A DNA stretch of 64,000 bases from Octopus sinensis (lineage: Eukaryota), in assembly GCF_006345805.1 (NCBI RefSeq), contig NC_043012.1, positions 13,702,001 through 13,766,000 on the forward strand. The letters are read 5' to 3'. A program made the translations under genes and the position numbers. The notes under the pieces are model-generated. The model had not been told where the DNA came from, searched no databases, and saw nothing but the letters and a program-made list of their open reading frames with translations. The stretch's first letter is position 1, and every line of letters begins with the position of its first letter. Below are positions 19,262-62,602 of the stretch, piece after piece.

Positions 19262-20461
19262 TTATTCTTCCTGATTTTCCTGTGGTACAAACGACAAAGA
19301 TATGAATATGATCGAAATTATTATCGATATTATAATACTGACTTTTAGAAATATAGTGTCAAGTCGTATGTAGTTGAAATTATACTTTCGGTTTGTATTT
19401 CTTGATATTTCCTCCGATTTTGCGATAGAAATCCTGGAAACATCCGCTATTTGATTACTACAAAATTTATTTTTCTTTTTACATGGCGAACTTAATTTTG
19501 GCTCATTAGACGACTGAATTACATACAACTTGCTGACAACCACCGAACCAAGAGTGGTAATCCCACTCATCAATGATAACAACATTAAATACAACATAAG
19601 AAGTGAGGGGTATTTTGAATTTGCTGGAGTTTTATTCTCAAACTGAATAAGGTATAAGACGTTTGAGAGAAATACCGTCGTAGCCAGAGAAACTTTCTCG
19701 CCTGATTCAGGAGGCAGGAGGAAAACAAACACCGTCAAAAGCGTCATCATTATTGTTGGAATCAGCATAGCTATGATACCAATAGTAAGCTTACGCTGTA
19801 AGTGTATCGATGCAACAGCGTAACTGAAAGAGAGTTCCAAGACTTCCCTCTCACCTCTTATATTAACATTCCATTTATGGTTTTGTGTATGATTTATATG
19901 ATAGAAAGTGAGTTTTTTTATTTGTGTATGCTGAAGTGCATGCAAAGCGATACACATGCCAATTTCGCATATATGTTCATCGAATGGGTAGGCGTAAGCA
20001 TTTACCTGGCAATGACTATGTAATAAAGTTAGCGACCACTTTTCCACCACCCCATTATAATAAATCTTCACTTCAGGAAACTTGTCTTCATCATCTGATT
20101 CTTTCATGGAATTGCACATTATGATGGCTGGCATCCACACCTTATTTTTTGGCATGTATAAACTCGTAATGTTGTTGTGTTCCAATGGATTCCAGACCAG
20201 ACGTTCATCGTACCAATGGTTCGTAAAGAAGTATCTAGCCTTTAGTAAGTTATTTACGAAATCCAAATCATAGAGTGTGTGAAGACCCATGACCACATAT
20301 ATATCAACAGTATGAGTTACATTTATAACAGGTCTTACATACTTGTTATAATTAGATAATAAGAAATCTTGCAATAATCCTTCATCTGTGTACATACGGT
20401 TAGAATTTGCTTCCGATATAATCAGAGCGGAAAGGAAAACACAATATTGTATCAATATCAT
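19262..20461 (-). CDS. Cephalopod chemotactile receptor (atypical nAChR-like Cys-loop channel subunit), intronless ORF, CRT-like
   Basis: 399 aa; signal peptide, YNKYVRPV, WYDERLVWNP, WMP, Cys-loop CQVNAYAYPFDEHIC, M1-PPESGEKVSL-M2, M3, M4; lacks loop-C vicinal Cys-Cys and loop-B Trp. Confidence 0.95.
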   Translation of the reverse strand: MILIQYCVFLSALIISEANSNRMYTDEGLLQDFLLSNYNKYVRPVINVTHTVDIYVVMGLHTLYDLDFVNNLLKARYFFTNHWYDERLVWNPLEHNNITSLYMPKNKVWMPAIIMCNSMKESDDEDKFPEVKIYYNGVVEKWSLTLLHSHCQVNAYAYPFDEHICEIGMCIALHALQHTQIKKLTFYHINHTQNHKWNVNIRGEREVLELSFSYAVASIHLQRKLTIGIIAMLIPTIMMTLLTVFVFLLPPESGEKVSLATTVFLSNVLYLIQFENKTPANSKYPSLLMLYLMLLSLMSGITTLGSVVVSKLYVIQSSNEPKLSSPCKKKNKFCSNQIADVSRISIAKSEEISRNTNRKYNFNYIRLDTIFLKVSIIISIIISIIFISLSFVPQENQEE

Positions 20462-20699
20462 TATTCGAAATATGTAAAATCTTCAATCTCATTTCTTTTT
20501 AATCACATGTTAATGATTTCCAAAGAATATCACTTTTGTAAATGTTTTGTAATTTCTTTAATTAAAATGTAGATCTATTTTGTTAAATGAATTACAATTT
20601 CGATATTATTGATGCAAGACAATAATGTCAAGATAGATTGCTAATGTACATGGTTGAATTTTACAACAGAACAGAAGGATATTATCCATTTATCTGCAA

Positions 20700-21045
20700 A
20701 ATAAGAACTCGAAATAATCGAAAGTATGCAGCGGATTACAGTGGAAAATTTCACGAGAAATGCAAATTTAGTGTGTAAGAAATTTGTGTTGGTATTTGCC
20801 AGCACTACATTGCAAATACCTAATCATCGTGTGTTTTGCTGTTACAGAATAGGGTTAAAGATTTATTTATTGCTGTCATATAATGTTCATTCTTTACCAA
20901 AATATGTAAGAGAATCGTATACCGAGAGTTGTAGTTCCCGCTTTGTTACTCCTGTGACGATATCCATGTTAGAGTTAATGAATTGCAGCCAAACACATCC
21001 GAAAGTACATGCAAGTGCTATGAATCTGCAACCAAAAAGAAACCA
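20700..21045 (-). promoter_or_regulatory. Conserved upstream motifs of CR gene 1
   Basis: AAGTATGCAGCGGATTACA at 20722-20740 and CTGTGACGATATCC at 20952-20965 match the same motifs at the same distances upstream of the other two CR ORFs. Confidence 0.55.
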
Positions 21046-21639
21046 ATGATTCGTTAGAATGATCAACGAACATAAAAGGCAACATGAAAATCATTAGGGT
21101 TTAACTTGATTTATAGGTTTCGTGTAAATATCCATGCTAGTAAATCTAAAGTTTTGAAATAAATGTCCGAGTATATGTCATCTTTGGTTGGGATACATTG
21201 CAAATAAATTTTAAATGTTGATTTTTGACAAGTTACTTAACATGTATACCTTTATATTGTTTATAGCTGAATACATAAAAACAGTTTAATCTAAGAAAGA
21301 TACAAGAAAGGATGCGTTGTATGTTATACAATTTCAGAAATCGTTTACTTCGTTGAGTTCTATAGAAAGGGAATCATAGTACACAGCACCATCTATTTAT
21401 ACAAGGAAACGGAAGGCCTAGTGCGCACTCGCTATAACGTCTTGACTAAAAGCACGAGTAAAACATGTTTTAACTTCAATAAATAGATTGTGATTTATTG
21501 TTGCATAGACACATACATACGTATATACAGAGACCTAAGTCTACTTTATTAGAAATTCCACAATATCAACAGGATATTTTGTATGTATGTATGTATGTAT
21601 GCAGATTTGTGTTTTGGTTTATGTATGTGTTCTCATGTA

Positions 21640-23480
21640 TATAGTTGCATGCTACTTAAATGATAAACTTGTGGAATGTTTTACAGGTTTTTACAGTTCC
21701 AGTGATCTGTAGTCTTCGATTCAGCCTAATTTCTGAAGGTTGGTATTTAGTCACTGTGTTACATATCCCAGGGCCGTTATAATCACAGATATGTAACTGA
21801 ACTTGTAATCTGCATAGACTAACTGCAGATTTCTCAGTAGTTCAGCGCAGCTACTCTCTTTCTCACTGATCATCATCTTTATGTTAACTTACGCTGGGCA
21901 ACTGATTTCCACAACTCTACACAGTTTCTCTTCTGCATCCCAAATCATTATCTGAGGTCTATTGTTTTTACACTTTACTGAGGTTTACGCTGGACTATTC
22001 CTCCGGTATTCTTTTTGATTAATTGGGGCTCTGGCTTCTACCATTTTGTGGGTTCTTATTTCTTTGTCTTCAGGGTTATCCTGCCGACGGATTTCATTAT
22101 GTATTATCCAAGCTAAAGCATTATGTCTCATCGGTAGCTAATACCGCGATGACATTTGCGGACAATGTCACATTACTGATGTGGGTGATATCTTCAATAA
22201 TCACGTCACAAACTTTGCATTTGTCGTCAGATCTTGCTGCTTTTCCTGCATCGTCGTACATTTTGTTCACTAGGCATTTGATTGATATTTCCTAGATTGC
22301 GAAGCATACTTTTCTCAGTGGGAAATAGTAATCCAGTTGATCGGTCCATGATAGACTGCTTTGATGATCAATGTTACTATCATCTCTGAACTTTGTACTA
22401 ACATATCCATGCATGGTCTTCTGTTTATACCCGCTCATCAATTCATCTCATGATACGTTGCTGTAGTGTGGCGTGACTCCTTTGGGCCTGTATTTAAGCT
22501 TATCAGACAAGGAATCCTGCTGAAGTAGCTGCCTTCCAAGTCTTATGATATTATCACCCTCATGGATGTAAACGTGGTCCAGGGATGCACTTCAACACTT
22601 GGTGATTAAAAAAGCTTGCCGAAGGGATATGATAAGATATTCAAAAGCAGTTTTGATGTTAAGCCTCTGCTACCCAGTTTTCGTTTTAGGTAAAGGCGTT
22701 CGACATCATTTCGGATGTGGAAATTATGTGTGTTGGTTAGTTTCCAAATCAATAACTCGGATCTGATCAAGCGTCCAATCAACCAGCCCAAATCTTCCAA
22801 GGCCCACATTTTCTTTATTCGGCTGTAATATCAATTTAGTGACACGTGTTTAGTTACAGGTGTCATCTTAAGATATATTTTCATCCACACATACATACTT
22901 GTAACATTCCTCATTGAATATAGAGGAAATTGTTAAATCATTGATGGAGATGTTGCTGGTCTGGTTTACAGTTTTTCTTCTTTTCACAGCCATTTAGCAA
23001 CATCGCAGCCCTATATTCTTTTCAGAATACTGTAAACAAGTCAAGAAGCATATTATTTGTTTATAGTTTCAAATCATTCACAAAGAAACAGTGTGTAATT
23101 TTCGTATTTCTGCTTCCTTGTAAACCAGTGTTATATGCTTCAGATTTGCTTAACATGAGTGACAAGGGGTTTGCTGAAACTATTAACAACATCATTGAGT
23201 GCTGTCCACCAGGGAATATACCTCAGCTATACTGTATTCTATAAGCGATAATACAATCATTCCTTGTATTTAATTTCAACATGGTGGGCAAAGATAAAGT
23301 CAGGTCAGCTCTGGTTTTAACAACGCTCACTGAAGCTTTGGCAAGTTCTGGGCTTCTAGCATCCATGATTGGGGAAAATAGTCAAAGGATTTCTTGTAGT
23401 CTAGCCACATTGAAACTAGGTTCCTTCTATGCTTTCACCTCTCTGAGATTATAGTCTCGTTTATTCATAATGAAAGTTTG
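21640..23480 (-). mobile_element. Degenerate RLE-type non-LTR retrotransposon (R4/Dong-like)
   Basis: HNFHIRNDVERLYLKRKLGSRGL and NRPQIMIWDAEEKLCRVVEISCP...ITALGYV (restriction-like endonuclease region); many stops; flanked by (TATG)n on both sides. Confidence 0.7.
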
Positions 23481-23560
23481 AATGAATGAATGTATGTATG
23501 TATGTATGTATGTTTGAATGTATGAATGTATGTATGCATGCATGCATATATGTATGTATG

Positions 23561-23593
<33 letters not shown>

Positions 23594-24026
23594 TTGAATG
23601 TATGTATGTATGTATGTATATATGTATGTATGTATGTTTCAATGTATGTATGTATGTATGTATGCATGTATGTTTGAATGTATGTATGTATGTATGTATG
23701 TTTGAATGTATGTATGTATGTATGTATGTTTGAATGTATGAATGTATGTATGTATGTATGTATGTATGTTTGAATGTATGAATGTAGTATGTATGTATGT
23801 ATGTATGTATGTTTGAATGTATGTATGTATGTATTATGTATGTATGTATGTATGTATGTTTGAATGTATGTACGTATGTATGTATGTTTGAATGTATGTA
23901 TGTATGTATGTATATATGTATGTATGTATGTTTCAATGTATGTATGTATGTATGTATGTTTGAATGTATGTATGTATGTATGTATGTTTCAATGTATGTA
24001 TGTATGTAGTATGTATGTATGTTTGA

Positions 24027-24059
<33 letters not shown>

Positions 24060-24263
24060 TGTATGTTTGAATGTATGAATGTATGTATGTGTGTATGTAT
24101 GTATGTTTGAATGTATGTATGTTGTATGTATGTATGTATGTATGTTTGAATGTATGTACGTATGTACGTATGTTTGAATGTATGTATGTATTATGTATGT
24201 ATGTATGTATGTATGTATGTATGTATGTATGTATGTATGTATGCATGTATGTATGTATGTATG
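23480..24263. repeat. (ATGT)n satellite with recurring TTTGAATG variant
   Basis: Direct reading; source of the MYVC/HTYI ORFs. Confidence 0.95.
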
Positions 24264-24782: not shown

Positions 24783-24838
<56 letters not shown>

Positions 24839-25033: not shown

Positions 25034-25088
<55 letters not shown>

Positions 25089-26224: not shown

Positions 26225-26577
26225 TGTAAGGTATACTAGCCATCTCAATATGGCTAACCACTAAGGGTGGGTGTTACTGTAGATTGTAGCCCCAGGAGAT
26301 CATCGTCTCCAGCTGGTTTTAGGCACACTTTCTGTGCGCTTATGGTATTTGCAAAGGGAGATCATCCCTCTCTCGTACGCTGAAGACAGGCAAATACCTA
26401 GAAACTGCAGTCCGTGCGTATCACTTAGGATGACGAGAGAGGGATAACCTCCCTTTCCAAATGCAATAAGGGCACAGAAAGTGTTCCTAAAGTCAGCTGG
26501 AGACGATGATCTCCTGGGGCTGCAGTAACACCCACCCTTAATGGTTAGCCATATTATTATGGCAAGTATACCTTACA
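26225..26577. mobile_element. Fold-back element (arms 26225-26376 / 26433-26577) with a hammerhead in its loop
   Basis: Imperfect ~150-bp inverted arms enclosing the motif listed next. Confidence 0.75.
26374..26418 (+). ncRNA. Minimal type I hammerhead ribozyme motif
   Basis: CGTACG-CTGAAGA-c-AGG(CAAATA)CCT-a-GAAAC-TGCA-GTC-CGTGCG: 6-bp stem I, intact core, palindromic TGCA loop, GUC site. Confidence 0.8.
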
Positions 26578-26624: not shown

Positions 26625-26663
<39 letters not shown>

Positions 26664-33221: not shown

Positions 33222-35885
33222 ATGTGGGGCCTGTTGCATCAAAATAGAAACAAAATTTCTTTCCTGAGAGATCTTACTGCATGCAATCAAGCCCTATGCA
33301 TAGCACTTGTGGAAACTCACCTCAACCTTGATATAGAGGACGCAGAAGTACACATACCAAACTATGCCATACTGCGAACAGACAGAAGGGAAAGGAGCCA
33401 TGGTGGAGTTGCTGTATACATCCGAGATGACCTCACACCCCAGGTCTTGATGACATACTCAAATTCGGTATGTGACACCTTAATTGTATACATAAGACAA
33501 CATAATATAGTCATATGCAATGCATATTGCCCACCGGATGCACCAAATCACATAGGCAAGTTTGAAGATTGCCTCACAAGAATTAAAGAAATCCTCATGA
33601 ATCTGGAACACCACGTGACCATATTTCTTATGGGTGATTTCAACTTCCCCAACGTAAAATGGCCCGAAGATCACATACTCTCAGGAATGAATCATTGCAA
33701 GCAAGTACAGGTGGAGTCCCTGCTCAACCTCACCAATGCCTTATTCATGTCTTCTGTGCAAGCCGTATGCCAGAAATATGTCCCAGAGCACAAGGCTAAA
33801 ACAAATAGGAGCAAGATTCCAAGAGACAGGAAGATCCTCATGAGACGACGGACGAAGGTTGCAAATCGTCTCAACCAACATCCCAAAAGTAGCGAAACGT
33901 CCCGCCTAAAAACAACACTGATGGAGATCGAAAAAAGGCTGCAACAATCCTATGTGAAGGAGAAAGCAGACAAAGAAGCCTGGGTTATAAAAAACATTCA
34001 ATCAAACCCAAAGGTCTTCTTTCATTACGCGAAAGAAACAGTCTCAGTGCACTACAAGATAGGACCCCTTCTCCAGAAGGATGGCTCCCTCACAGACAGT
34101 CCAACTATGATCAGTGAGATGCTGAATGGCCAGTTCAAAAGTGTCTTTACCACCCCGTTGGAACACAGACAAGTGAACGAACCAGTGGACTTCTTTGCCG
34201 CCTCACCTATAACCAACGAGGCGGTTACAATAGAATGTATTGACATTAGCGAAAAAGATGTCCTACTAGCCATAGATGAATTGGACACAAACTCAGCCGC
34301 TGGTCCAGACGGTTTCCCAGCCATCCTCCTCAAAGCGTGTAAGCATGCCCTGGCAAAACCCCTTAAGATTCTCTTCCAGAGCTTTCTTGTGAAAGGCAAA
34401 CTGCCAAGCAAGCTGAAGGAGGGAATAATATGCCCAATACATAAAGAGGGAAGTAGAGCAGATGCCAAAAACTATAGGCCTATCTCTCTGACTTCACACA
34501 TCAGCAAAGTCGTGGAAAGGATAGTCAGAAAGAAACTAATCGCATTCCTTGAGGAGAATAACTTGCTGAGTAATACCCAGCATGGTTTTCGACCAGGTAG
34601 GAGCTGCCTGACCCAGCTCTTACAGCATTATGACTGGGTGTTGAGGCAGTTACTCATCAAATCAAATGTGGACGTAATCTACCTTGATTTTGCAAAAGCT
34701 TTTGAGAAGGTGGATCATGATATGATATGCCACAAACTACGTGACCTCGGCATAGCTGGAAAACTCGGAGTGTGGTTGCATGACATCATGAAAGATAGGA
34801 GTCAGGCAGTAGTGGTTAATGGAGCCACCTCTATGAACACACAAATAGTGAGCGGTATTCCACAGGGCACTGTCTTGGGACCACTGCTTTTTATATTGGC
34901 CCTCTCAGATATGCCCTCAAATGCCCGGATAGCCACTCTGGCCAGCTATGCAGACGATACGAAAGTCTCGCAGAAAATACAGAACCCCAGCGATGTTGCA
35001 CACCTGCATCAGGAGTTGGACTCAATCAACAGATGGGCTGAGGATAATAATATGCAGTTTAATGCTGAAAAATTCCAGGTCCTGCGCTACCAGCATCCAA
35101 AACTGAATATTAAACTTACAGGATACACCGGTCCACAGGGAATTTCAATCCCAGAGCCTAAGTCTGGGACAAGTGCACATTACCAGGATGGCGACAAAGT
35201 GCAGACGACTGGCTGGGTGGATCCTAAGAACATTCAGAACCAGAGATAAGGAAACCATGATGGTCCTCTGGCGGACATTCGTCCTCAGTCGCCTGGATTA
35301 CTGCTCACAGCTATGGTCACCCACCAGTGTAAAATTAACAGCAGACCTTGAAGCAATCCAGAGAAGATTCACAAAGAAGATCGTCTCTTTGCAACAGCTC
35401 AGCTACTGGGAAATGTTGAAACAGCTAAGACTCTACTCCCTGGAGAGAAGACGGGAGAGGTATGCAGTAATATATGTCTGGAAGATCCTGGAAGGAATTG
35501 TGCCAAATTTTGGCATTGTAAGCTACACCAATGCTAGAACGGGACGACACTGCATAGTGCCAAAGATCCCAGCAATGCCATCACGCTTCAGGACCAGCTT
35601 CTGCAACAGTCTGGGTTTCAAGGGCCCACAGCTTTTTAATATTCTCCCAAAGAGTCTGAGGAACTTGCACAAATTAGATGTAGCGGTTTTTAAATCAAAA
35701 CTGGACATCTTCCTGTCAAGAGTCCCAGATGAACCTACCTCACGGCGAGAGGTGCAAATGAGAGTAGCTGTATCAAACTCCATTCTTCACCAAGTGCCAC
35801 ATATTAGACGAGGTTCGTCGCAATAACAGTGTAGCACAAAACGGCGGTGCATCGCATGGCCGCAGCTCTGAGCTGAAACTAGAAA

Positions 35886-39500: not shown

Positions 39501-41137
39501 GAAATGGGGTAAGACGTGTCTAGTGTTAATACTTAATATTTTAGAAGACCAGTAATAGTAATTTTGTGGGATGTACTACAAACCACAGCTAAATAACCTT
39601 TATATCACAACCTATTCGTCTAAAAATGATATTGAAATTATAAAAAGCATACTTCAGATTCGGACTGCCCATAGATTACAAGTGAGACTAAAAATACTTG
39701 TTAATTTAACAATTCACAAGACTTCACTATTTTTAAAAAAATTACGTTTAATTACCAGTTTGAAAATTATAGATGGGTGGTCGCCGATTTCCATTTTTTT
39801 CTTTTAACCATCGACTGTTTCTTCCATTGTTTTTAGGTGAGTAGTACAAAAAAAAAACACAAAAATTGCCTAAAATTGGTATTGAGTGGCGGACGTGACT
39901 TTGAAGAAATTCGTAACTGTTCAAATATTTTTTTCTGCTTTTGTTTTTATTCCGAAAAGATGTCTCCCATTTTTTTTTCATTTCATAATGCAGTAAAAAA
40001 TGGAGAAAATCGGCGTGAAAGAGGTGATTCAGTAATTTTCAATTTTGTTTTACTCAAAAAGTATTCCCTGCCATCATTTGTAAGGAGGTGGTGTATAACA
40101 GTTTTTAAATATCCCAGCCAAAAGAAAGACAATAAAAATTATATCATTGTGTTATTATGAAAGTCCACCAAAGCATTCTCTTGGGAAATACCTTGCACCG
40201 ACGGAATACTCAGGTAGTGCCTGCATATAATGGGCGCCATTTTAAAGCTGGCGATTTTGGCACTTCGGCAGATGACGTATTTTTGCATTTTATGTTGTTT
40301 TGGATTTCTTTGGATTTGTGAACTTTCTTTAATCCATAAAGTTGCTGGTTTTCATCTCAAAGTTGGTTAAGTGATTGATTTCCTTTAACATCAGCGTATT
40401 TTGGTACTTTGTCGTCAGTTTACCTACTTGAATCATAGAAATTCTTTGAATTTGTTGTAAATATTTGAGCCAACATGATCATCGCATTTGTTGTAAAGAT
40501 GTGAACTGGCACCATATCCCAACACCTCCCTCCCAAAACCATATAAAAACATATATTTCTAACAACACACATTCCAATAATAACCTTTTTTTGCTCTCTC
40601 CCTCTCCTATCATCCCCTTTATATTAAAAAACGTGTATCTTACACCTCCTTAACCCTCCGCCAGACACACACTTAACCTCATTTTTAACAGAAAATTACT
40701 AGAGTTTATCTTCATGAAATTAAGATAATTGATTCAGCCAGAAGAAAAGAATCTGGAAAATATTTGACCATTATATTTTCTGAAACGATCGTAATGCATC
40801 TCACTTGACTATATTTTATATTTTTATTTCATTCGGTAACTACTTTATTTCATTTCTTCGAGAACCATTTTAAATCTCCTTACCCTATTGAATTTTACTG
40901 CATACGAGAATTATTGTAAATCTTGTAAACATCTCACCTGCTCGAAATTTTAATTTAATTTATTTAATCCGATGTAATTTTCTGTATAATAATTGGAATT
41001 ATAATAAAGGAAATATATATGTATATATTACTTTTATTCCGAATTCAACTGTGTATTGACCGGATTAGGAGAATGATAAACTCATCTGTCTTCTCTCCCA
41101 CCTTAAACTTTGATATATATATATATATATATATATA

Positions 41138-43734
41138 TACTAAGTAATTAAGGGTTTAGCAACGAATTGCCTCACCAACACACCGAATTTAGAAATAGCA
41201 GTCAAAGAGATATAGCTATTCCTTCTACTAAAAGGGGGATCTCAGTAAAAACACAGCACTTGAAAGGCAAACACAGACAGGTAAGAAAGAATGAAATGAC
41301 GTCAATCTATCATACAATTTTAAGTTAGTAATTGATAATTATTCCAAATTAATTAATTTCACCCTTTATTGTTACTGATAACCATATTTTATCCCAGTAA
41401 ATGACCACAGCATTTTGTCTTGGCTACACGCGGGTGGAAGGGGGCTGGTGACACAAACTTTCATTCACACTTTGAATTTCGTGGTACTGGTCATGCTTTG
41501 GCTCGCTCTGACACTGAGTTGAGATAATGCCTTCTAGTATCTCAAAATTTAATATACAATTATTCATAATTGTAGTATCCTGCGCCGATGAGAAAAGAAG
41601 TTTGGATAAGGTAGAATTTTCTAATTCTTATGCTTTCCTAAAACTTGATTTCGAAACGTACGTCCGTAGGTAACTTAAAATTGTATGATAGATTGCCGTC
41701 ATTTCATTCTTTCTTTCTTACCTGTCTGTGTTTGCCTTTCAAGTGCTGTGTTTTTACTGAGATCCCCGTTTTAGTAGAAGGAATAGCTATATCTCTTTGA
41801 CTGCTATTTCTAAATTCGGTGTGTTGGTGAGGCAATTCGTTGCTAAACCCTTAATTACTTAGTATTACTTAAATTTTCCTCGAATGGGGCTTTTACATGC
41901 CGAAATCTACTTGGTGTAATTGATAATTATTCCAAATTAATTAATTTCACCCTTTATTGTTACTGATAACCATATTTTATCCCAGTAAATGACCACAGCA
42001 TTTTGTCTTGGCTACACGCGGGTGGAAGGGGGCTGGTGACACAAACTTTCATTCACACTTTGAATTTCGTGGTACTGGTCATGCTTTGGCTCGCTCTGAC
42101 ACTGAGTTGAGATAATGCCTTCTAGTATCTCAAAATTTAATATACAATTATTCATAATTGTAGTATCCTGCGCCGATGAGAAAAGAAGTTTGGATAAGGT
42201 AGAATTTTCTAATTCTTATGCTTTCCTAAAACTTGATTTCGAAACGTACGTCCGTAGGTAACTTAAAATTGTATGATAGATTGCCGTCATTTCATTCTTT
42301 CTTTCTTACCTGTCTGTGTTTGCCTTTCAAATGCTGTGTTTTTACTGAGATCCCCCTTTTAGTAGAAGGAATAGCTATATCTCTTTGACTGCTATTTCTA
42401 AATTCGGTGTGTTGGTGAGGCAATTCGTTGCTAAACCCTTAATTACTTAGTATTACTTAAATTTTCCTCGAATGGGGCTTTTACATGCCGAAATCTACTT
42501 GGTGTAATTGATAATTATTCCAAATTAATTAATTTCACCCTTTATTGTTACTGATAACCATATTTTATCCCAGTAAATGACCACAGCATTTTGTCTTGGC
42601 TACACGCGGGTGGAAGGGGGCTGGTGACACAAACTTTCATTCACACTTTGAATTTCGTGGTACTGGTCATGCTTTGGCTCGCTCTGACACTGAGTTGAGA
42701 TAATGCCTTCTAGTATCTCAAAATTTAATATACAATTATTCATAATTGTAGTATCCTGCGCCGATGAGAAAAGAAGTTTGGGTAAGGTAGAATTTTCTAA
42801 TTCTTATGCTTTCCTAAAACTTGATTTCGAAACGTACGTCCGTAGGTAACTTAAAATTGTATGATAGATTGCCGTTATTTCATTCTTTCTTTCTTACCTG
42901 TCCGTGTTTGCCTTTCAAGTGCTGTGTTTTTACTGAGATCCCCGTTTTAGTAGAAGGAATAGCTATATCTCTTTGACTGCTATTTCTAAATTCGGTGTGT
43001 TGGTGAGGCAATTCGTTGCTAAACCCTTAATTACTTAGTATTACTTAAATTTTCCTCGAATGGGGCTTTTACATGCCGAAATCTACTTGGTGTAATTGAT
43101 AATTATTCCAAATTAATTAATTTCACCCTTTATTGTTACTGATAACCATATTTTATCCCAGTAAATGACCACAGCATTTTGTCTTGGCTACACGCGGGTG
43201 GAAGGGGGCTGGTGACACAAACTTTCATTCACACTTTGAATTTCGTGGTACTGGTCATGCTTTGGCTCGCTCTGACACTGAGTTGAGATAATGCCTTCTA
43301 GTATCTCAAAATTTAATATACAATTATTCATAATTGTAGTATCCTGCGCCGATGAGAAAAGAAGTTTGGGTAAGGTAGAATTTTCTAATTCTTATGCTTT
43401 CCTAAAACTTGATTTCGAAACGTACGTCCGTAGGTAACTTAAAATTGTATGATAGATTGCCGTCATTTCATTCTTTCTTTCTTACCTGTCTGTGTTTGCC
43501 TTTCAAGTGCTGTGTTTTTACTGAGATCCCCCTTTTAGTAGAAGGAATAGCTATATCTCTTTGACTGCTATTTCTAAATTCGGTGTGTTGGTGAGGCAAT
43601 TCGTTGCTAAACCCTTAATTACTTAGTATTACTTAAATTTTCCTCGAATGGGGCTTTTACATGCGGAAATCTATTTGGTGTAATTGATAATTATTCCAAA
43701 TTAATTAATTTCACCCTTTATTGTTACTGATAAC

Positions 43735-43737
<3 letters not shown>
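41138..43737 (+). mobile_element. Tandem array of 588-bp hammerhead-containing units (retrozyme / Penelope pLTR-like) with a 5' inverted partial unit
   Basis: Unit start GTAATTGATAATTATTCC at 41328, 41916, 42504, 43092, 43680 (period 588); 41138-41327 is the reverse complement of 41671-41864; (TA)n on both flanks. Confidence 0.9.
41579..41670 (+). ncRNA. Type I hammerhead ribozyme, copy 1 (others 42167-42258, 42755-42846, 43343-43434)
   Basis: CCTGCG-CCGATGA-[GAAA...long hairpin...TTTC]-GAAAC-GTAC-GTC-CGTAGG; predicted cleavage after 41664. Confidence 0.82.
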
Positions 43738-43784
<47 letters not shown>

Positions 43785-44103: not shown

Positions 44104-45276
44104 TCATTCTCTTCTAAGAGATAGACAGATAAAGTAAATTGAAACTATTGCCGATGTTAGAATTATAATTTTTAGAAATATACCATCAAGTCGGCTGTAA
44201 TGAGAAATACATTTTTTCATCCCTTTCCCTTTAAATTCTTTCTTAGACATTGTTGAAATATCAGCAATTTCATTAATGCTTGGCATAATTTTATTTTCGT
44301 TCGACGGGTTCAATTTGCTATTGTCAACTAACTGATTTACATACAGCCTGGTTATAATCACCGAACCAAGTGTAGCGATACCACTTAACAGTGATAATAT
44401 CATTAAATAATATCCAAGAAGTGAGGGTTGTTTTGAATTTTTTGGCAAATCATTGTAGAACTGTGCAACGTACAAGACATTTGATAAAAATATTGTCATT
44501 GCTAGAGAAACTTTCTCACCAGATTCTGGTGGTAGAAGGAAAATAGAAAAAGTCAATATAGTCATCATTGTTGTTGGAATCAGCATAGCGATTGTACCCA
44601 ACTTTATTTTGCGATGTAAGTAGAGAGTAGCGGATGCGTACGAGAAAGTGTTTTTGTCATATACGTTACAAGAGAAGCTGATATCCCATTGATAGTTAGA
44701 TACATGACCTACACTATTGCAGGAAAATTCTTTTATTCTTGTATCTTGAAACTTATGCGATGGGGTACCCATGGAAATAACGCATGCCTGTTCATCAAAA
44801 GGGAAATTGTAAACATTTATTGCACAAAAAGTGTGTAGTAATTTAATTGACATCATTTTCGCAAATCCATTAAAATCCACAGTTATTTCGGGAACGTTAG
44901 TTTCAGATTCTGATTCCTTTAATGTGTGGAACATTGTAATAGACGGGATCCATACCTTATCTATAGGTAGGTAGATATGTGTAATATTATTGTAGTTTAA
45001 TGGATTCCATCTCAACAATTCATCCGTCCATTGCAATACAATCCAGTACCGGGACACGAGTATATTGTTTACGTAGTCCAAACCATGGAGTACTTCAAGA
45101 AATAATTTTGCGGTTATATCGACCGAGGCAGTTAAATTAATGACAGGTCTTATATGTTTCATATAATTAGATAATAATTTGTCTTTCAACCTTAACTCAT
45201 CTTTGTACATTGGGTCACAATTTACTACCGATAGAGATGTAGTCAGAATCAGGACGATGCATTGAACAAATATCAT
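44104..45276 (-). CDS. Cephalopod chemotactile receptor (atypical nAChR-like subunit), intronless ORF
   Basis: 390 aa; signal peptide, HIRPVINLT, WTDELLRWNP, Cys-loop CAINVYNFPFDEQAC, PPESGEKVSL, four TM helices, no vicinal Cys-Cys. Confidence 0.95.
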   Translation of the reverse strand: MIFVQCIVLILTTSLSVVNCDPMYKDELRLKDKLLSNYMKHIRPVINLTASVDITAKLFLEVLHGLDYVNNILVSRYWIVLQWTDELLRWNPLNYNNITHIYLPIDKVWIPSITMFHTLKESESETNVPEITVDFNGFAKMMSIKLLHTFCAINVYNFPFDEQACVISMGTPSHKFQDTRIKEFSCNSVGHVSNYQWDISFSCNVYDKNTFSYASATLYLHRKIKLGTIAMLIPTTMMTILTFSIFLLPPESGEKVSLAMTIFLSNVLYVAQFYNDLPKNSKQPSLLGYYLMILSLLSGIATLGSVIITRLYVNQLVDNSKLNPSNENKIMPSINEIADISTMSKKEFKGKGMKKCISHYSRLDGIFLKIIILTSAIVSIYFICLSLRRE

Positions 45277-45890
45277 TATGTATAATAATTCTGTATGGTA
45301 AATATGAGCGAATCACAGTTTCTTTTAGTTTTTATCAAGCAAAATTAAGAATTTCAGAAAAATTCTATTTTATTTTCTTTAAAAATAATATATTAGCTTT
45401 TTTCCTGAACACGTCATTCGTGTTACAGATAAGAATATTACGATTGATTACTTACATGAACATTATAACACATTATTAATACAAAAGAAGAACCCAAAAT
45501 GCGTCTCAGGATGCGTTCTCATTCAATGAGTATAGACGGATTACCACATTGATAATCAGTTTTCATTGTAGCTGATTTTTTTTGCTTGGAAAATTAAGAT
45601 AACGATCTGAATATATTTTGGTGATGCTGTCATAAAACTCCAATCAACTTTGCATGTTGCACAATGAATCCAAACGTCTTAGTAAAATATTCAGAAGCGA
45701 CATCTTTCAATATTTAGGAAGCTATTCATCAAGGTATCGGACGCTATTATGCCGGTGGTTTCTGTAACGATATCCGCGTGAAGCAGTAAAGTGATATCGT
45801 TTATAGTGAAGGGAAGGAATTACTGTCAAACCTACTCTTCACTGTAGAGTAAATGGATAAGTCGGCAACCTAAAAAAATGAAGTTATTTG
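45277..45890 (-). promoter_or_regulatory. Conserved ~600-bp upstream block (paralogous to 62603-63205)
   Basis: Colinear similarity by eye, including an identical 18-mer AGTATAGACGGATTACCA (45529-45546 = 62876-62893) and GATATCCGC.TGAA. Confidence 0.7.
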
Positions 45891-47189
45891 TTAGATCATA
45901 TCATGTAAATCAAATTTTGCAAACAAATAAAATATCAATAACTCTGTATTCGTGAAAGAGCGAAGAAATAAGGTATACTTACAATGGCCGGGCGAAAATA
46001 AACGCCAAGAAATATAATAGGGAACCAAATCAAATTATGTAACATCAATCAAAAATAATAGGAATTATCTCATGCTGATGAATCTCTAACACTTTGGAAT
46101 AGTTACGCATGTATGAAAGTTAAAACAATTATTTTCATGCTAAATAACGAAGAATATCAAGGCTAAATGATGAATTCATAAAACATGCATATAATAGTCT
46201 GCTTGTTCGTTCGCACGTAATACTTTAGTTAGTTTGGGAGGTGGAGATTTATTGACTCAGTGATGGAGTAAAAGTGAGAGAGAGAAATGGAGAGTAAAAA
46301 CGGAAGAGAGGGACATTTAGAAAAGGGCGATTAATATTAATACACATTGTCCTAGTGGTCACTTAGTCAGCTGGAGGTCGATACGAAGGAGTAGACGAAA
46401 GGAAACGACGAGAGGAAAAGAGGGGAGAGAAGTGTTAATGGTGTGCGATGTGGTGGGAAAGGAATACTTATTACGTCCATAAAAAGTTAGCGGAAGATAA
46501 AGGTAGAGAGTGATGGACAGGGGATGCAGTTAAATTAAGAGAGAGAGAGAGAGAGAGAGAGGCAGACAGCGGTGGTGGATGTGGTGGTAGTAGTGGTGGT
46601 GAGTTGATATTGAAAAGTATTTTGTTTTATTGAGCTAATTTTTTATATACAGACCATCGCATACGCATAAGTGCGATTATTTATCGTTGCTCGCTTTAAA
46701 ATTTGGGATTTTCTTATAACGGTTAATTTAGCCTAAACTCTTGATTAACAAGAAACACAGTTGCAGCTACCAGAGAATGGATGTGCAAACATAGAGCACA
46801 GATTAGAAAAGAAGAGCGAGAAGATATAATAAAAAGAAAAGACAACACTGAAGAGACGTAGGCGAGTGTCAAGAAAATTTAAAGAAAGCTAAAGTCATCC
46901 ATTCTTTCTTCAATTGGTTTTCTTATTGTTTTTTTCATTCCATGGAGCTTACACAGACCCCACTTGTAAGTATATAATTTACTTAAAGTTATTCTAACAA
47001 AAACAAAATGATAGATATTGTCTGAGAAAATACACTGGTTTTATAGGTTTTTTATTTGTTACTATATTACCGTGGCGAACAATGAAGTACATTCTAATGA
47101 AAATAAAATTGGTAGAAATGCTTATACGCACAAGCATACATACATACAGTAAATGCCCCTGATGCACTACAAGGCACTGGCTCTCGTGG

Positions 47190-48745: not shown

Positions 48746-51269
48746 TAATATTCCACAAGCAATAAAATATTTTCAAACAGAATAATATTATAAATTATAA
48801 TATTATATTCTGCAGCAGAATAATATTATAAATAAAGCCTTCGCTTTCCTTCCATACATCAACTACAAGTGTAAAGAAAAACAATAGAAAACTGTTTAAA
48901 AAATGATAGACGTAATCATTTTAGTTTTCAATTTCTGTCTCTTGAGATTCCGCCTTTAATGTTACCTTCGTGGACTATCACACCATCTCAAGAAATAAAT
49001 GGATTAAGAAGATATAAAATTCCATCTGACATATTTCAAAATATGCGTGAAACTGCCAGCCAATAAATATTACTGTAAACACTGTATATTCTTTTATGAT
49101 CAGCAAATGTTTTCACGTTTTTCCAAGTGGATCAACAAAATTTTATGATATATACAAACACATACTACGTGAAATAAAATTAATGAAGTGGTAATTTATT
49201 GAATTAATGCTATGAAGGTATTGGTATTAAAGTCCAAACAACATGATATGCACGTATGGTGTTTCATTAAGTTACTGTTTGTAAATGAAATATTAATATG
49301 CTACATATTAATAAACTACAAATAAAAATTGGTGAAAGTAATAGTTACCGTATATCTTATTCGTATATCTGTCGTTTCTTATTCGCGTGTTACGATTATT
49401 TGATTATGAAATACGAAAATGAATATATTCTCTGCGAATTCAAAGCATACTTTCAACTATGGTCGCATTTTTAATGAAGAAATAATTTCAATATTGTAAA
49501 TGAAAAAAAACGGAGGCAAGCTGCCAGATTCGTTAGCATACCTGGCTTAATGTTTAGCGACATTTTATTCGTCTTAACGTTCTGAAATCAAATTCAACCG
49601 AAGTTGACTTTGCCTTTTATCCTTTGGAAGGTCGATAAAGTAAATGCTAGCTGAGAAATGGAGTCGATGTAAAGGACTTCTTCACACCCCACACACCTCG
49701 TACTGAAATTTATGAGCTTCTGCCAAACTTTGAAGCTAGTATTATAAACGAAAAAAACAACTTGTATTATTGAAATTAAAAATCTTTTTCAATTCAATGA
49801 AGTTAGATATATCTATATAAAGAGTTTCAAACGTCGTGCATCGTTTTTACATGAGGAATTCGCAAGGATAATGTTGACATAAGGAAGGAGCAAGGATAAT
49901 GTTGACATAAGGAAGGAGCAAAAATAGCAGCAGATACTGAGAGTATCTCTAAAATATACCAGAATAATGAACATATATATTTGAAAATATGGAAATAAAT
50001 TGAAAGTTATGAAACAACTACCTGAATCAATTATGATTCTGACCACGTTTCGGATTCAAAGCTTCAAAGTTCAATTTCGAGATTTCTGTAATGTAAGAAA
50101 TGGCAAAGACATAGAATGTATGCACTGAGCTGCTAATGTCAAGTGCTAGCATCGTCTTCTCTAATACATTGAGCTTTGTGTAAACAACTTGATATTATAC
50201 GCTTAATATATGTATGTATGTGTATGTACCAAATTATGTATATATGTAAGTGTGTGTATGTACCTAAATATGTATGTATGTATATGTATGTACCTAATTA
50301 TGTATGTATGTATGTGTATGTACCTAATTATGTATGTATGTGTATGTACCTAATTATGTATGTATGTATGTATATATGTATATGTACCTAATTATGTATG
50401 TATGTACATGAATGCATATATATATTCATAGTAAATTACACATACATATACATTTAGTCATACATCATATTTATGTCGCTGCTTAAAACTGACCGTGCAA
50501 TCAATTGATTGTAATTAATAACGCTTATCTTTCCATTTAACCAGAACATTTGCAAAATGGATTATTATGAAGCATTTGAATGACATAAAAGAAGAATCTG
50601 CTACATCAATACTCAGAGACAGCAACGATACATAGGATACATTAGAAAGTCTTATCTACCATAAACTTCTTAAATCCTGCCATTGTTAATATGTATGTTT
50701 AGGTGTTTAGGTGTGTGTGCGTATATGTACAATCATAAGATCCAAGGATCTAACTGTTGCAAGTTTGTAAGCTTCGAGCAGTCCGTGATAGGTATTAAAA
50801 AAAACAACGTTCAGAATCGATAATTTGTTGGCATCGTAGGCTTTAGACTTTTCCCATGTCGAAGTTCGATCAGCTGAAAAACAAAAATTTATCGATTACG
50901 GTTAGCAAATTCGGTCACAAGAAATGGGTATAAAATACAAATTGAGGGAATGAAGCAGGTACAATTTAAGCTAAATACATGTCCTCGATACCAAATAGTC
51001 TCATGTAATTATTGATCAACGAAGGTTACTCTGGTTACCTTCTCATCAAGCCGATGATGACTCAGTTATATGAATGTTATACTGCCGTTAGAGAATCCCA
51101 AGTTAACTCGCCGCAGATATAATCTGAAATGAGTGGCAAAGCTGAAAGAACAGAATAGAAAAATCAAATTACTGGCAAACATCCAACAAACAAATATTTG
51201 AATAACTTGGTCAGTAGATAAGAAAAGTGAAATAAGAGAACATATATTAGGGAGAGGGGATAGAATTTC

Positions 51270-52031
51270 TACCACTGGGTTCAATCTTCTGCCCAGAAGC
51301 AAGAACGCGTCGAGTGCTCGAGGATGAATTTGGAGATGTGCCAAGAAGATGGGTCAAAATTGTTCAAAAGACTGATAACACAGGATGAAACCCGGGTCCA
51401 TCACTATGATCCAGAGACCAAAGCCCAGTCAATGCAGTGGCAGCACCGTGACTCACCTCCTCCAAAGAAGGCAAGGGTGCAGCCCTCCGCTGGCAAGGTC
51501 GTGCTCACAGTCTTCTGGGAACAGGACGGAGTAGTGATGACAGATTTTCTGGCAAAGGATACCACAATTACAGGAGCCTATTATGCTTCACTTTTGAGGA
51601 AATTAAGAGAAGCTATCAAAATCAAGAGGCGGGGTAAGATCAGCAAAGGCATCCTCCTCCTGCAAGACAACGCTCCGGTCCACAACTCGCTTGTCGCCAG
51701 ATCAGAAGCACAGGGGTGCGGCTATGAACTCCTCCCCCTACTCTCCTGACATTGCACCCTCTGATTTTCACCTCTTCCCAGCCATGAAGTTGTTTTTGAA
51801 AGGAAAGCATTTCCCAGATGATGCAGCCTTGATTTCTGAAGTCACGTCGCGGTTGGAGGAGCAGGCTGGTGACTTCTACAAAAACGGTCTCCAGAGCTGC
51901 ACCAAACGATGGGAGAAATGCGTAACTCTGGGTAGTTCCTATGTAGAAAAGGACTAATAACTGTGCCAGGTTTCGTTACTCTACTGCTATGGGAAGTGAG
52001 TCAGCGGCATTACTTATTGAACGCCCTCGTA
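51270..52031 (+). mobile_element. 5'-truncated mariner transposon with frameshifted transposase and right TIR
   Basis: ITQDETRVHHYDPE, LTVFW, LLQDNAPVH, YSPDIAPSDFHLF; ends ACTTATTGAACGCCCTCG-TA. Confidence 0.92.
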
Positions 52032-56909: not shown

Positions 56910-57165
56910 TGCCTTATTAATTTAACACACTCACCGGTCAGATTTCCACTTATTTACTTATTATATTTTACTAAAATTTTCTAATACTACTGAAAAGACT
57001 GCAAGTTGCCACGAAAATTTTAGTGAAATAAAATAAGTAAATCAGTGGAAATCAGACCAGTGTGTGTGTTAAATAAATAAGGCACTAAAACATAAAGACC
57101 CCTCCCAGACACAATAAAATATACTTCTCACACGAATTCACATAAAGAATCTTGCAAACCACATA
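56910..57165 (+). mobile_element. Penelope-like terminal fragment with internal inversion (related to 4900-5045)
   Basis: Hairpin TGCCTTATT...AATAAGGCA followed by the CACACGAATTCACATAAAGAATCTTGCAA terminal motif. Confidence 0.5.
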
Positions 57166-57866
57166 CAAAAACGAAATTACCTTAAAATTATAAACAAAAT
57201 CAAATCGCAGATTCAGATTGTTCGTATTTTAAATGTATTGCTGAAAAACACTTTCATAAAACCCAAAATTTTAGGGTTTATGGGGAGCGGGGTAAATGAA
57301 AAATTTTTTTAAATGTCACTGTTTTTCAGTTACGTTTCTTTTTCTGTTTGAAAATTAATGCAGTGCGTGTTATAATGGTGGACGCCGATATTCAAATGGC
57401 AAGACAGCTTCCATCAGTTATAAGTACGTATTGCAAAAAGACAAGATCAAACGGTTAGATAAATACTGAATAAAGGAGAGGAGTTTCAAAATATTCATAA
57501 CGTTTCTTTTCCTTTCATTGTGTCGAAATTGCCTCTCATACAATTAAGTGCATAGTACCAATAAAAAGAAATTAAGAAAATCGCCCCGGAAAAGGGGAAA
57601 GATGTTTCTTGATTTCTCAAAACTTTTCGTTCATGAAAAACTTTCACCATTTCAAATTGTGTGGTGAAAAAAAAATCAATTTATAAACACCCACTAAAAT
57701 TAAAGAATATCCAGCCTATGTGAATGTGCCATTCCGAAAATCCATTACGGTATTCTATTGTGGAAATATTCCGGCAACGATGGGATACTTGGGTAGTATT
57801 GTTATATATTACGAACATTTGTGTATGTACATAGTAGCAATATATATATATATATATAATATATAT

Positions 57867-57919
<53 letters not shown>

Positions 57920-57968
57920 AAACAAGTCAAAAATAGAAAATGCTAAAATAATTTTATAGTGAACATTT

Positions 57969-58006
57969 CAGTACCGGTTTCGGTCATTTTGAGACCTTTT
58001 CAACTG
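57969..58006 (-). ncRNA. Minimal hammerhead motif with compensatory U3-A8 core
   Basis: Minus strand CAG-TTGAAAA-GGTC(TCAAAAT)GACC-GAAA-CCGG-TA-CTG. Confidence 0.6.
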
Positions 58007-58132
58007 TAACGATTAAATAATTAAATTTAGAAAAATTAGAAGAAAAGTTTTTTTAAAAGAATATTTCTATAGTAGTGTTCAGATTTAAGTGGCATTCTGC
58101 CTTTCTCTGACTCCCTGTTTGCACTTGTGTGT

Positions 58133-58175
<43 letters not shown>

Positions 58176-58559
58176 CATGTACGTGTGTGCACGCGCGGGC
58201 GTCTGTGTGTTCGTATTGATCCTTGGCCTGTTCAGAGACGATTTGACACGACTTATGTGCTTCGTTTTTCATACTGGCTTGCATAGCAAAATTTAATTAT
58301 AAACAAGAAGGTAGATTGTACAAAGTTGAGTCACAGAACTTTTTTACAATATATGCCCCATACCGTTAGCAATGTACTGCCAGAATTTAAGTTAAGCTTT
58401 TCCAATGTGTAATGTGAAACAAACTAGACAGATAGTGTTAAATATTGGCAACCACATGTAAAGCAAAGTTTAAATATTTCTGCATATCTGAGAATAAATA
58501 CATTTGTGTATATGAATCTTTAGAATACTGAGTGTTCTTGTAATTTAAAAGGAATAAGT

Positions 58560-61180
<2,621 letters not shown>

Positions 61181-61402
61181 ATACAAAGTAAATCAAGTAA
61201 GTTTCTAGTTTTAGCTGCTTACACCATATATTTTGCGTATTTAAATTAAGCATTTCAAGTGTGTTATATTGAACAACTCTGAATATATATTATCAATTTT
61301 GTGGACCTCGTGGTACTTAAAATGTGAACGTCCCTACACATCTGACAATAACTAAAGTATTATATGTGATTTTCGAGAAAGAATGCAGGATAATATTATA
61401 AT

Positions 61403-62602
61403 TTAAAAATACCCTAAATTTCCAAGACTAAGACAAATAAATGCAGTTGAAAATGATACCGTTATTATAATGATAGATTTTAGAAATATGTCATCAAGTT
61501 GGTTGTAACGGAAAATATATTTTTTCGTTTTTTTTCTTGGCATGTCTTTTTTAAGTACAGAAGGATTGGATTCTTCTTTAGATATTATTGAAATATCTGT
61601 AACTTGATTAATGTGCGAGGACATAGTACTTTGATGCGATTTGATATTATCAGACGACTGATTTACATATAACTTGCTTATAACCACCGAACCAATTGTA
61701 GCGATACCACTTAACAAGGATAATACCATTAAATATAAAACAAGAAGCGAGGGTCTTTTTGAATTTATCGGTATGGTTTTCTCGATTTCAACAAGGTACA
61801 AGACGTTTGATAAAAATATCATCGTACCTAAAGAAACTTTCTCACCAGATTCTGGAGGTAGAACGAAAACGAAGATAGTCAAAATAGTCATCATTATTGT
61901 CGGAATCAACTTAGCAATGGTACTTGAATTCAATTTACGACGTAAGTACATCGTAGCATTTGCGTAGTTGTATTTTTCCTTTATGCCATCTGGGTCGCAA
62001 AACAATGTGATATCCCATTGATAATTGCGTAAAAAGTCTGCTTTACTGCAAAGCAATTTTTTTATTTTTATATGTTGAGGTTCATACGTTGGTATATAAA
62101 TAGAAATATCACACATCTGTTTATCAAAAGGATAACTGTAAGCATTCATTTCACAATCGGCATGCAGTAATATGGCTGACGCCATTTCCACAGATCCATT
62201 GGAATACACAACTACATCCTGACAACTATTTTTATATATTGTTTCCGTTCTTGAGTTGGATAATGTAGTAGACGGGATCCATATCTTATCTTTAGGTAGA
62301 TAGATACGCGTAATATTATTATAGTTTAATGGATTCCATCTCAACAATTCATCCATCCATTGCAGTTCACTCCAAAACCGAGCCTTAAGTATACTGTTTA
62401 CAAAGTCCAAATCATAGAGTTCGTCAAGATATAATTCTGCATTTATATCGACCGATGTAGTTAAATTAATGACAGGTCTTATATGTTTCGTATAATTAGA
62501 TAATAATTTACCGTTCAACCGTAATTCGTCTTCGTACATCGGATCAGTATTTACTATCGACAGAAATATTGTCAGAAACAGAACGAGGTACTGGACAAAC
62601 AT
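61403..62602 (-). CDS. Cephalopod chemotactile receptor (atypical nAChR-like subunit), intronless ORF
   Basis: 399 aa; HIRPVINLT, WMDELLRWNP, Cys-loop CEMNAYSYPFDKQMC, PPESGEKVSL, four TM helices, no vicinal Cys-Cys. Confidence 0.95.
   Translation of the reverse strand: MFVQYLVLFLTIFLSIVNTDPMYEDELRLNGKLLSNYTKHIRPVINLTTSVDINAELYLDELYDLDFVNSILKARFWSELQWMDELLRWNPLNYNNITRIYLPKDKIWIPSTTLSNSRTETIYKNSCQDVVVYSNGSVEMASAILLHADCEMNAYSYPFDKQMCDISIYIPTYEPQHIKIKKLLCSKADFLRNYQWDITLFCDPDGIKEKYNYANATMYLRRKLNSSTIAKLIPTIMMTILTIFVFVLPPESGEKVSLGTMIFLSNVLYLVEIEKTIPINSKRPSLLVLYLMVLSLLSGIATIGSVVISKLYVNQSSDNIKSHQSTMSSHINQVTDISIISKEESNPSVLKKDMPRKKTKKYIFRYNQLDDIFLKSIIIITVSFSTAFICLSLGNLGYF

Follow-up and report, generated by a model that had tools for sequence, protein, structure and literature searches.

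The window analysed here, a stretch of 64,000 nucleotides from Octopus sinensis, very probably contains part of the octopus chemotactile receptor (CR) gene array, whose products would act as ion channels with paralogue-specific tuning. Three uninterrupted single-ORF genes for Cys-loop subunits are found on the minus strand: g1 (19262–20461; 399 amino acids), g2 (44104–45276; 390 amino acids) and g3 (61403–62602; 399 amino acids). Each encodes an N terminus resembling a signal peptide, together with a ligand-binding domain of the Cys-loop type and a transmembrane domain, matches the Pfam families Neur_chan_LBD and Neur_chan_memb, has an intact C-x13-C loop, and carries the conserved transmembrane motifs PPESGEKVSL and FLSNVLY already pointed out in the initial annotation. 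Its count of three intact genes and one pseudogene agrees with the open reading frames and with an nhmmer search of the window, where the five matches at E ≤ 1 comprise the three genes and two pseudogene pieces, and no further CR remnants. An alignment of flanks extending to +366 hints at a second gene stub 3′ of g2, which is not found by blastn. As annotated, all four copies are co-oriented (tblastn, nhmmer); a reading with g2 and g3 on the plus strand was rejected, as that strand contains 30 and 29 stops, with CAT at 45274–45276. The listed strands of the other 22 ORFs were reproduced by an independent scan. The description as a tandem cluster holds in that the four copies occupy 43 kb of one strand, but the spacing is loose, with 23,642 bases between g1 and g2 and 16,126 between g2 and g3. 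The genes had likewise been called intronless, a claim that stands for the coding sequence, which consists of single ORFs collinear with CRT1 over their full length, and is limited to it. Acceptor-like sites occur 593 nt before the ATG of g2 and 577 nt before that of g3. Elsewhere, there are no Rfam matches at the gathering threshold in the window, with chance-level matches only in two sub-regions. A C2H2 finger is the sole match to pass the Pfam cut-off among 68 further open frames, these being what remained of 85 after setting aside g1–g3, two retroelement/transposase frames (scanned separately), and frames lying across genes or repeats or of seemingly low complexity.

The assignment to the chemotactile receptors of the known octopus array is supported by PDB sequence matches, Foldseek and phylogenetic trees. 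For all three genes, CRT1 of Octopus bimaculoides (PDB 8EIS, 9E6B-D, 9YI4; UniRef entry P0009) ranks first in the PDB (E 1e-118 to 1e-142; 3.5e-142 for g1, 1.5e-119 for g2 and 2.7e-118 for g3), followed by the squid bitter receptor CRB1 (PDB 8EIZ; 1e-39 to 1e-44) and then by 5-HT3/nAChR structures. CRT1 is 53–56% identical to g1–g3 and has its clade, fold, Cys-loop, GEK motif and M2 in common with them. CRT1 is also the top Foldseek match (E 8e-36, rmsd 2.7) of an AlphaFold model of g2 (pLDDT 76, pTM 0.63). In the trees, g1, g2, g3 and CRT1 fall within an octopus clade (support 100/99) that lies apart from nAChR-like outgroups.

That these genes encode neuronal nAChR subunits of alpha or beta type, whether canonical or nearly so, is extremely improbable. 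Close homologues do bear NCBI names such as ‘acetylcholine receptor subunit beta-type acr-2-like’, the Pfam families are common to both groups, and non-alpha nAChR subunits also lack the Cys-Cys. However, the scores of CRT1 are about three times those of any nAChR in the PDB searches with g2 and g3, and the grouping with canonical neuronal nAChRs that the initial annotation had proposed to look for did not occur; in the trees, g1–g3 are set apart from named nAChRs, one of them an alpha-10-like protein of Octopus vulgaris, an outcome that rules this reading out. Nor do the genes have the aromatic box or the vicinal Cys-Cys of canonical nAChRs. In an alignment with named nAChRs, the annotated loss of the loop-B Trp and of the loop-C Cys-Cys is borne out, with A/P/P in the loop-B column of g1/g2/g3 and no Cys-Cys anywhere; the loop-A Tyr is also missing (C/F/S), and loop C is shortened in all three, by 6–7 residues. 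A Trp is found at the loop-D column in g2 and g3. The Glu at −1′ had been cited as a cation-type selectivity filter; by sequence, all three genes indeed carry it, as do 41 of 45 rows.

A sucker role does not follow from the missing acetylcholine residues alone, since a CR-like clade extends well beyond cephalopods (PMC13174522, section 3.4.4). As in the window, CR genes are clustered in O. bimaculoides: eight homologues named for that species, namely P0006, P0026 (the counterparts of g1 and g2) and six others, lie on one 58.2-Mb contig, which matches the 26-gene, sucker-expressed CR cluster on chromosome 15 described in the part of PMC9068888 covered here. The homologue matches in the protein set searched include no CRX/CR840-type named sequences.

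The birth-and-death evolution proposed for the array is visible as intact copies beside a pseudogene, but it is old rather than ongoing in the window, because all three intact genes have closer counterparts beyond this genome and the pseudogene is heavily decayed. In the tree, the partners are O. bimaculoides P0006 for g1, O. bimaculoides P0026 for g2 and P0027 for g3 (support 97–100). Gene g1 is 83% identical to P0006 and 76% to P0005, no match of g2 in the searched protein set exceeds 74% identity, and the three paralogues are mutually only 47–54% identical. Because the nearer relatives of all three intact genes lie in other genomes, the duplications are old. The upstream flanks of g2 (45277–46020, minus strand) and g3 (62603–63317, minus strand) are homologous, with 73% identity over 673 aligned bases, and g2 and g3 therefore arose by DNA-level duplication. 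For the flanks of g1, local alignment scores with those of g2 and g3 are not above the best of 100 shuffles. A recent, species-specific expansion and loss is an improbable account of the array. The pseudogene among intact copies and the still alignable g2/g3 flanks would fit it, but a single clade of g1, g2 and g3 is rejected (p-AU 7e-48), and the separate counterparts, the low identity among paralogues and the divergence of the pseudogene, described below, all argue against it. In line with the CR reading, dN/dS is below 1 for all three gene pairs (0.35–0.61) and lowest in M1–M3 (0.24–0.37), with the dS of the g1 pairs (1.0–1.2) being high and hence imprecise. In the ligand-binding domain, however, the dN/dS of the g2–g3 pair is 0.64 (interval 0.43–0.97), only just below 1.

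The pseudogene is a long-dead old copy split by a retroelement. It starts about 220 bases 3′ of the g3 stop and lies on the minus strand in two pieces, which together contain six stops and eight frameshifts over the aligned part. The 5′ piece (61026–61184) runs from the end of the signal peptide to about codon 55; its nhmmer match (61142–61026) has an E value of 3.7e-7, and its alignment scores 37.4 against a best of 24.5 in 10 shuffles. The 3′ piece (58564–59569; matched from 59569 to 58564, E 2.2e-100) keeps the CRT1-type cysteine pair. Across 26 octopus-clade proteins, identity to the pseudogene never exceeds 42%. Its DNA is closest to that of g3, and it is placed beside the g2/g3/P0024 group on a long branch, with an SH-aLRT of only 85–88. 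Descent as a dead orthologue of O. bimaculoides P0024 is permitted by the AU test (p-AU 0.45) but is not adopted here, as the pseudogene shares none of the 14 residues that occur only in the P0024/P0023 pair. The same test also permits a placement with g3 (p 0.079) and one with g1 (p 0.069).

The insertion that splits the pseudogene (59570–61045, plus strand) is a remnant of about 1.5 kb of a Penelope-like retroelement at an (AT)n tract. It has 213-bp inverted arms (59946–60156 and 60830–61042) that are 95.8% alike, and (AT)n at both junctions; inverted pseudo-LTR arms and (TA)n insertion are Penelope-like features according to the portion of PMC8557442 covered. In a frame at 60023–60682, hand-written motif patterns match a CX2-5CxxC motif and, after it, a putative GIY-YIG-like core containing R, H, E and N in order, with no Pfam GIY-YIG match. 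The closest known counterparts would be Penelope-like elements of the Neptune/Nematis type, whose C terminus carries a GIY-YIG endonuclease (PMC8557442, same portion); the insert differs from them in having no reverse transcriptase part and no Pfam or Rfam support. Rfam finds no hammerhead ribozyme in the insert. The sole match to a relaxed hammerhead core in the 64 kb is located in one arm (59977, minus strand); it departs from the usual core, and no clean hammerhead is seen in the MFE fold.

None of the intact genes is the orthologue or sister of CRT1 in the tree, where its sisters are P0008 and P0007. At eight published CRT1 pocket sites, g1 is identical at three, g2 at one and g3 at one, compared with seven for the CRT1 orthologue P0008, the loop-C pocket columns of g2 adjoining an alignment gap. 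The Cys116/Cys170 pair of most chemotactile receptors is present in CRT1 and g1, and missing from g2 and g3, which also lack L153 and the E104 acid of CRT1. Instead, g2 has Cys186/Cys203 and g3 has C185/C202, a C-x16-C pair in the same register around a conserved Trp as the beta8-beta9 pair of squid CRB1. A lone cysteine of either pair is found in none of 43 scored rows. This difference in the extra cysteine pair between g2/g3 and g1/CRT1 is missing from the initial annotation. CRB1 resembles g2 and g3 in lacking both CRT1-type cysteines, and resembles g2 in having an aromatic residue at the loop-A position.

The C-x16-C pair also occurs in P0076, P0077 and P0083, for all three of which CRB1 is the best PDB match. 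Its common register in these proteins, CRB1, g2 and g3 might suggest that g2 and g3 belong to the CRB lineage, or that they acquired a beta8-beta10 segment through recombination with a CRB-type gene, but either origin is highly improbable. CRB1 is distant from g2 (28% identity in the structure match) and CRB-like proteins form a separate clade. A single clade of g2, g3 and CRB-like proteins (seven rows, four cysteine columns removed, CRB1 represented by P0076, P0077 and P0083) is rejected at p-AU 0.00014, in a test based on a quick LG+G4 tree, which gave long-branch warnings, and on a group chosen after inspection of an earlier tree. Recombination is ruled out by the beta8-beta10 region of g2/g3, which is 40–43% identical to CRT1 and 12–27% to the CRB-like rows. 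Rejection of the common clade points to convergence of the cysteine pair. We infer from the sequences both the disulfides at these pairs and any shift in ligand; the swap in g2 and g3 may mean that a different kind of chemical is sensed.

A more specific proposal, which is tentative and less likely than not, is that an independent CRB-like architecture emerged in octopuses inside the CRT1-type expansion. In the g2/g3 subclade, the disulfide that staples loops A and B together at the pocket would have been lost and another gained between beta8 and beta9, precisely where squid CRB1 carries its cysteine pair, probably via an intermediate with both disulfides, like P0077. Given the aromatic residues of g2 in loop A (F116), loop D (W78) and loop C (F211), the ligands of g2 may be bitter, cationic compounds and not steroids or terpenes. 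The 2023 CR structure papers reportedly discuss extra CR disulfides. The word ‘disulfide’ is absent from the two CR preprints covered, and the swap may already be described in the primary papers of 2020 and 2023.

Going by what is known of the family, the subunits would assemble as pentamers, either homo- or heteromeric, and serve as cation channels of the sensory cells in suckers. These channels would ignore acetylcholine; a poorly soluble surface molecule would bind the remodelled pocket between subunits, open the channel and depolarise the cell. Each paralogue is probably tuned differently. Gene g1 appears to be the most CRT1-like, with W122, L153, F192 and the loop A–loop B cysteine staple kept, and g2 and g3 seem to have traded this staple for the beta8-beta9 pair, with a polar residue in place of L153. 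The steroid/terpene profile of CRT1 is thus unlikely in g2 and g3.

It is possible, if on balance unlikely, that one or more of these CR-family subunits, most likely g3, is only modulatory in heteromers, or works outside suckers. CR subunits form multimeric combinations, and the part of bioRxiv 10.1101/2025.03.03.641191 covered here singles out CRT1 and CR840 as working homomers and reports CR840 to be sensitive to chloroquine. At the W122 and F124 positions, the residues of g3 are small; g3 also lacks the acid at the E104 position and carries Met at 6′, an unusual pore residue that is found in two of 45 rows and is missing from its closest counterpart. It nevertheless keeps aromatics at the Y39, Y58 and F192 positions, as well as Glu −1′ and Leu 9′.

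For the CR family as a whole, g1–g3 mostly leave existing knowledge unchanged. The family, its clustering, its intronless coding sequence and its pocket divergence are already published, CR function is treated in the covered parts of PMC11526382 and bioRxiv 10.1101/2025.03.03.641191, and 14 O. sinensis CR sequences have already been mined, according to the portion of PMC13174522 covered. The window supplies full-length ORFs, as g1 is seemingly truncated in the protein set searched (342 amino acids, without signal peptide) and g2 seemingly absent from it, and it also supplies a sharp, testable structural difference between CR subclades. In the portions of the papers covered, reported ligands are few for the set of 26 CRs, so being able to predict ligand class from a sequence feature would help to assign ligands to the others. 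If the proposed CRB-like architecture is real, g2 would be a candidate for a chloroquine-type response, and the subclade would represent a convergent disulfide exchange that retunes a sensory channel.

Three intact single-ORF genes lie on the minus strand of the window, g1 (19262–20461; 399 aa), g2 (44104–45276; 390 aa) and g3 (61403–62602; 399 aa). They share 47–54% identity, and each encodes a Cys-loop receptor subunit with both Pfam neurotransmitter-gated channel domains and a hydrophobic N terminus. A hydropathy scan located three further hydrophobic regions after the N terminus, with M2 by itself staying under the threshold, and all four helices are present in the AlphaFold model of g2 (mean pLDDT 76). 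Translation of g2 and g3 meets 29–30 stops on the plus strand and is open on the minus strand, in agreement with the raw bases, and every chemotactile receptor (CR) copy was placed on the minus strand by tblastn and nhmmer. The co-orientation proposed in the initial annotation is thus upheld, as is its count of three intact genes and one pseudogene, which is borne out by the ORFs, the Pfam domains and the read-through of the fourth copy.

The best PDB match of all three genes is CRT1, a CR of O. bimaculoides (E 1e-118 to 1e-142), followed by the squid bitter receptor CRB1 (1e-39 to 1e-44) and then by 5-HT3 or nicotinic receptors. CRT1 is also the top Foldseek match of the g2 model. In trees, the three genes and CRT1 fall within a 26-row clade (support 100/99), separate from the nAChR-like outgroups. 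Alignment with named nAChRs confirmed the divergent ligand-binding loops that had been reported: the loop-A Tyr, the loop-B Trp and the loop-C Cys-Cys are absent, loop C is shortened, and Glu at −1′ is retained along with Leu at 9′. Loop names and prime numbering follow common usage. Eight homologues with O. bimaculoides names are located on one shared contig, and a 26-gene, sucker-expressed CR cluster is described on O. bimaculoides chromosome 15 in PMC9068888; we infer that the window is its O. sinensis counterpart. The cluster is real and was rightly interpreted, and both family and cluster are already known. According to PMC11526382, CRs are intronless, derive from nAChRs and form homo- and heteropentameric channels for hydrophobic ligands; they have been mined across 30 cephalopod species, as stated in a preprint (bioRxiv 10.1101/2025.10.28.685082).

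PMC13174522 counts 14 O. sinensis CR sequences and regards intronless CR structure as still to be verified in more genomes; the window supplies such verification for three coding sequences. Upstream, acceptor-like sites (pyrimidine tract plus AG, minus strand) occur at 21026, 45870 and 63180. These lie 564, 593 and 577 nt before the ATG of g1, g2 and g3, respectively, within a short block alignable across the three genes, and an additional AG stands 15–18 nt before the ATG of g2 and g3. By sequence, the genes may carry 5′ UTR introns, although each 900-nt flank holds two acceptor-like sites and the g1 flank overall is not significantly alignable.

The copies are old. A single clade of g1, g2 and g3 is rejected (p-AU 7e-48), and their tree partners are O. 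bimaculoides P0006 (83% identity) for g1, O. bimaculoides P0026 (74%) for g2 and P0027 (71%) for g3, which makes at least g1 and g2 older than the divergence from O. bimaculoides. A distinct protein, P0008, is the orthologue of CRT1. Alignable flanks of g2 and g3, spanning about 720 bases on the upstream side and 360 on the downstream side, score well beyond the best of 100 shuffles; the two genes thus arose by DNA duplication rather than fresh retroposition. The flanks of g1 gave no significant alignment with either. Pairwise dN/dS, from a simple counting method with dS about 1 for g1 pairs, is 0.35–0.61 with its minimum in M1–M3, and reaches 0.64 in the ligand-binding domain of g2–g3. Positive selection in the CR pocket is reported in PMC11526382.

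The entry for g1 in the searched protein set is a 342-aa form whose first residue is Met58, and its O. bimaculoides counterpart is entered in the same way. P0005, by contrast, aligns with the full 399 residues, and the longer ORF with signal peptide is probably correct. The closest match to g2 among proteins of 214–683 residues is 74% identical, so g2 seems to be missing from that part of the set.

The pseudogene begins about 220 bases past the g3 stop and ends at about 58560. Frameshift-aware read-through (profile columns 35–63 and 68–316 of 400) gave six stops and eight frameshifts, and its identity to each of the 26 octopus-clade proteins is at most 42%. It tends toward the group of g2, g3 and P0024 in trees, without firm support, and retains the CRT1-type cysteine pair. 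The first AATAAA downstream of g3, at +305 (about 61095, minus strand), is inside the 5′ piece of the pseudogene, so g3 may now take its 3′ end from the dead copy. Near codon 55, a foreign segment of about 1.5 kb interrupts the pseudogene. It is flanked on each side by (AT)n and contains inverted arms of 213 bp (96% alike) and a frame carrying CX2-5CxxC and GIY-YIG-like motifs. In these respects it resembles Penelope-like elements, for which such features are listed in PMC8557442, although neither Pfam nor Rfam supports the assignment. Because the arms are alike and the gene is far more decayed, insertion into an already dead gene is favoured over an insertion that killed it.

About 365 bases downstream of g2 lies an array of about 4.1 head-to-tail copies of a 588-bp unit (41137–43739; 99.3% identity); a partial inverted copy of 195 bp stands before it, and (AT)n borders both sides. 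The array's layout resembles tandem/inverted Penelope-type insertions, it has no Rfam match, and its distance from the stop codon is about equal to that of the insertion after g3. A 1.55-kb inverted repeat (6111–7659 and 9696–11237), whose arms are 98.5% identical with about 2 kb between them and (AT)n at the ends, gave no Pfam match among its scanned frames, and a portion of it recurs at 49987–50426. On the plus strand, a non-LTR retrotransposon remnant (33222–35826) has a 675-aa ORF encoding endonuclease and reverse transcriptase domains and, overlapping its end, a 212-aa ORF in a different frame, and a transposase fragment (51324–51749; Pfam Transposase_1) is of mariner type. A strongly strand-skewed, G+C-rich minisatellite of about 151 copies of a 23-bp unit (12541–15967) gives rise to spurious ORFs. 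A single C2H2 zinc finger (zf-met E 1.1e-5) is encoded by a minus-strand open frame at 2–406, which may belong to a mobile element or be an exon of a neighbouring gene, and long imperfect palindromes of 300–590 bp (5106–5691, 18186–18486, 26225–26577) may represent small mobile elements of hairpin type.

Eight ligand-contact sites of CRT1 given in two preprints (bioRxiv 10.1101/2025.10.28.685082 and 10.1101/2025.03.03.641191) were compared: g1 is identical to CRT1 at 3/8 and g2 and g3 at 1/8 each, against 7/8 for the CRT1 orthologue. The conserved hydrophobic back wall, L153, is replaced by Ser in g2 and by Thr in g3, and CRT1 affinity fell when hydrophilic residues were introduced at this site, according to the former preprint. 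At the calcium-related E104, g1 has Asp, g2 has Ser with acidic neighbours and g3 has Tyr. Pore position 6′ is Met in g3, a state present in 2/45 rows. A separate CR subclade (P0014, P0020, P0021), in which Lys replaces Glu at −1′ and position 2′ is Phe, may differ in ion selectivity.

The binding domains of g2 and g3 also differ from those of g1 and CRT1 in their cysteines. Of 287 domains among 196 stored proteins, the 45 reaching ≥220 bits, not counting a truncated g1 duplicate, were kept and the pseudogene was added; three rows with a gap in a column being scored were excluded. Among the 43 scored rows, which are related and hence not independent, 33 have only C116 and C170, six only C186 and C203, one (P0077) all four, and three neither pair, two of these grouping with the outgroup. 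A lone cysteine of either pair occurs in none of the 43, the all-or-none pattern expected from two disulfides. C116 stands in the column of the loop-A Tyr, and C170 is two residues ahead of that of the loop-B Trp, so that together they would staple the pocket on its principal face. In the g2 model, residue 186 ends one strand and 203 is within the next. The C186/C203 pair is found in g2, g3, P0026, P0027, P0076, P0077 and P0083; the best PDB match of the last three is CRB1, which aligns with g2 and g3 in the same cysteine pattern and register. When the four cysteine columns are left out, the trait requires two changes and the AU test rejects a single clade (p-AU 0.00014), on a quick tree with long branches and for a group picked after an earlier tree had been inspected. 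The local segment of g2 and g3 is nearer to CRT1 than to the CRB-like rows, and convergent gain of the pair is the best reading. P0018 has lost both CRT1-type cysteines and has not gained the other pair; it and P0077 are possible intermediates of the swap. The swap went unmentioned in a literature search that included O. sinensis receptors, a weak negative, as the primary 2015, 2020 and 2023 papers and the preprint supplements, which may name g1, g2 and g3, lay outside it. Judged from sequence, either pair may form a disulfide, and the exchange in g2 and g3 could affect ligand choice; this convergent cysteine swap is the element of the cluster that deserves follow-up.
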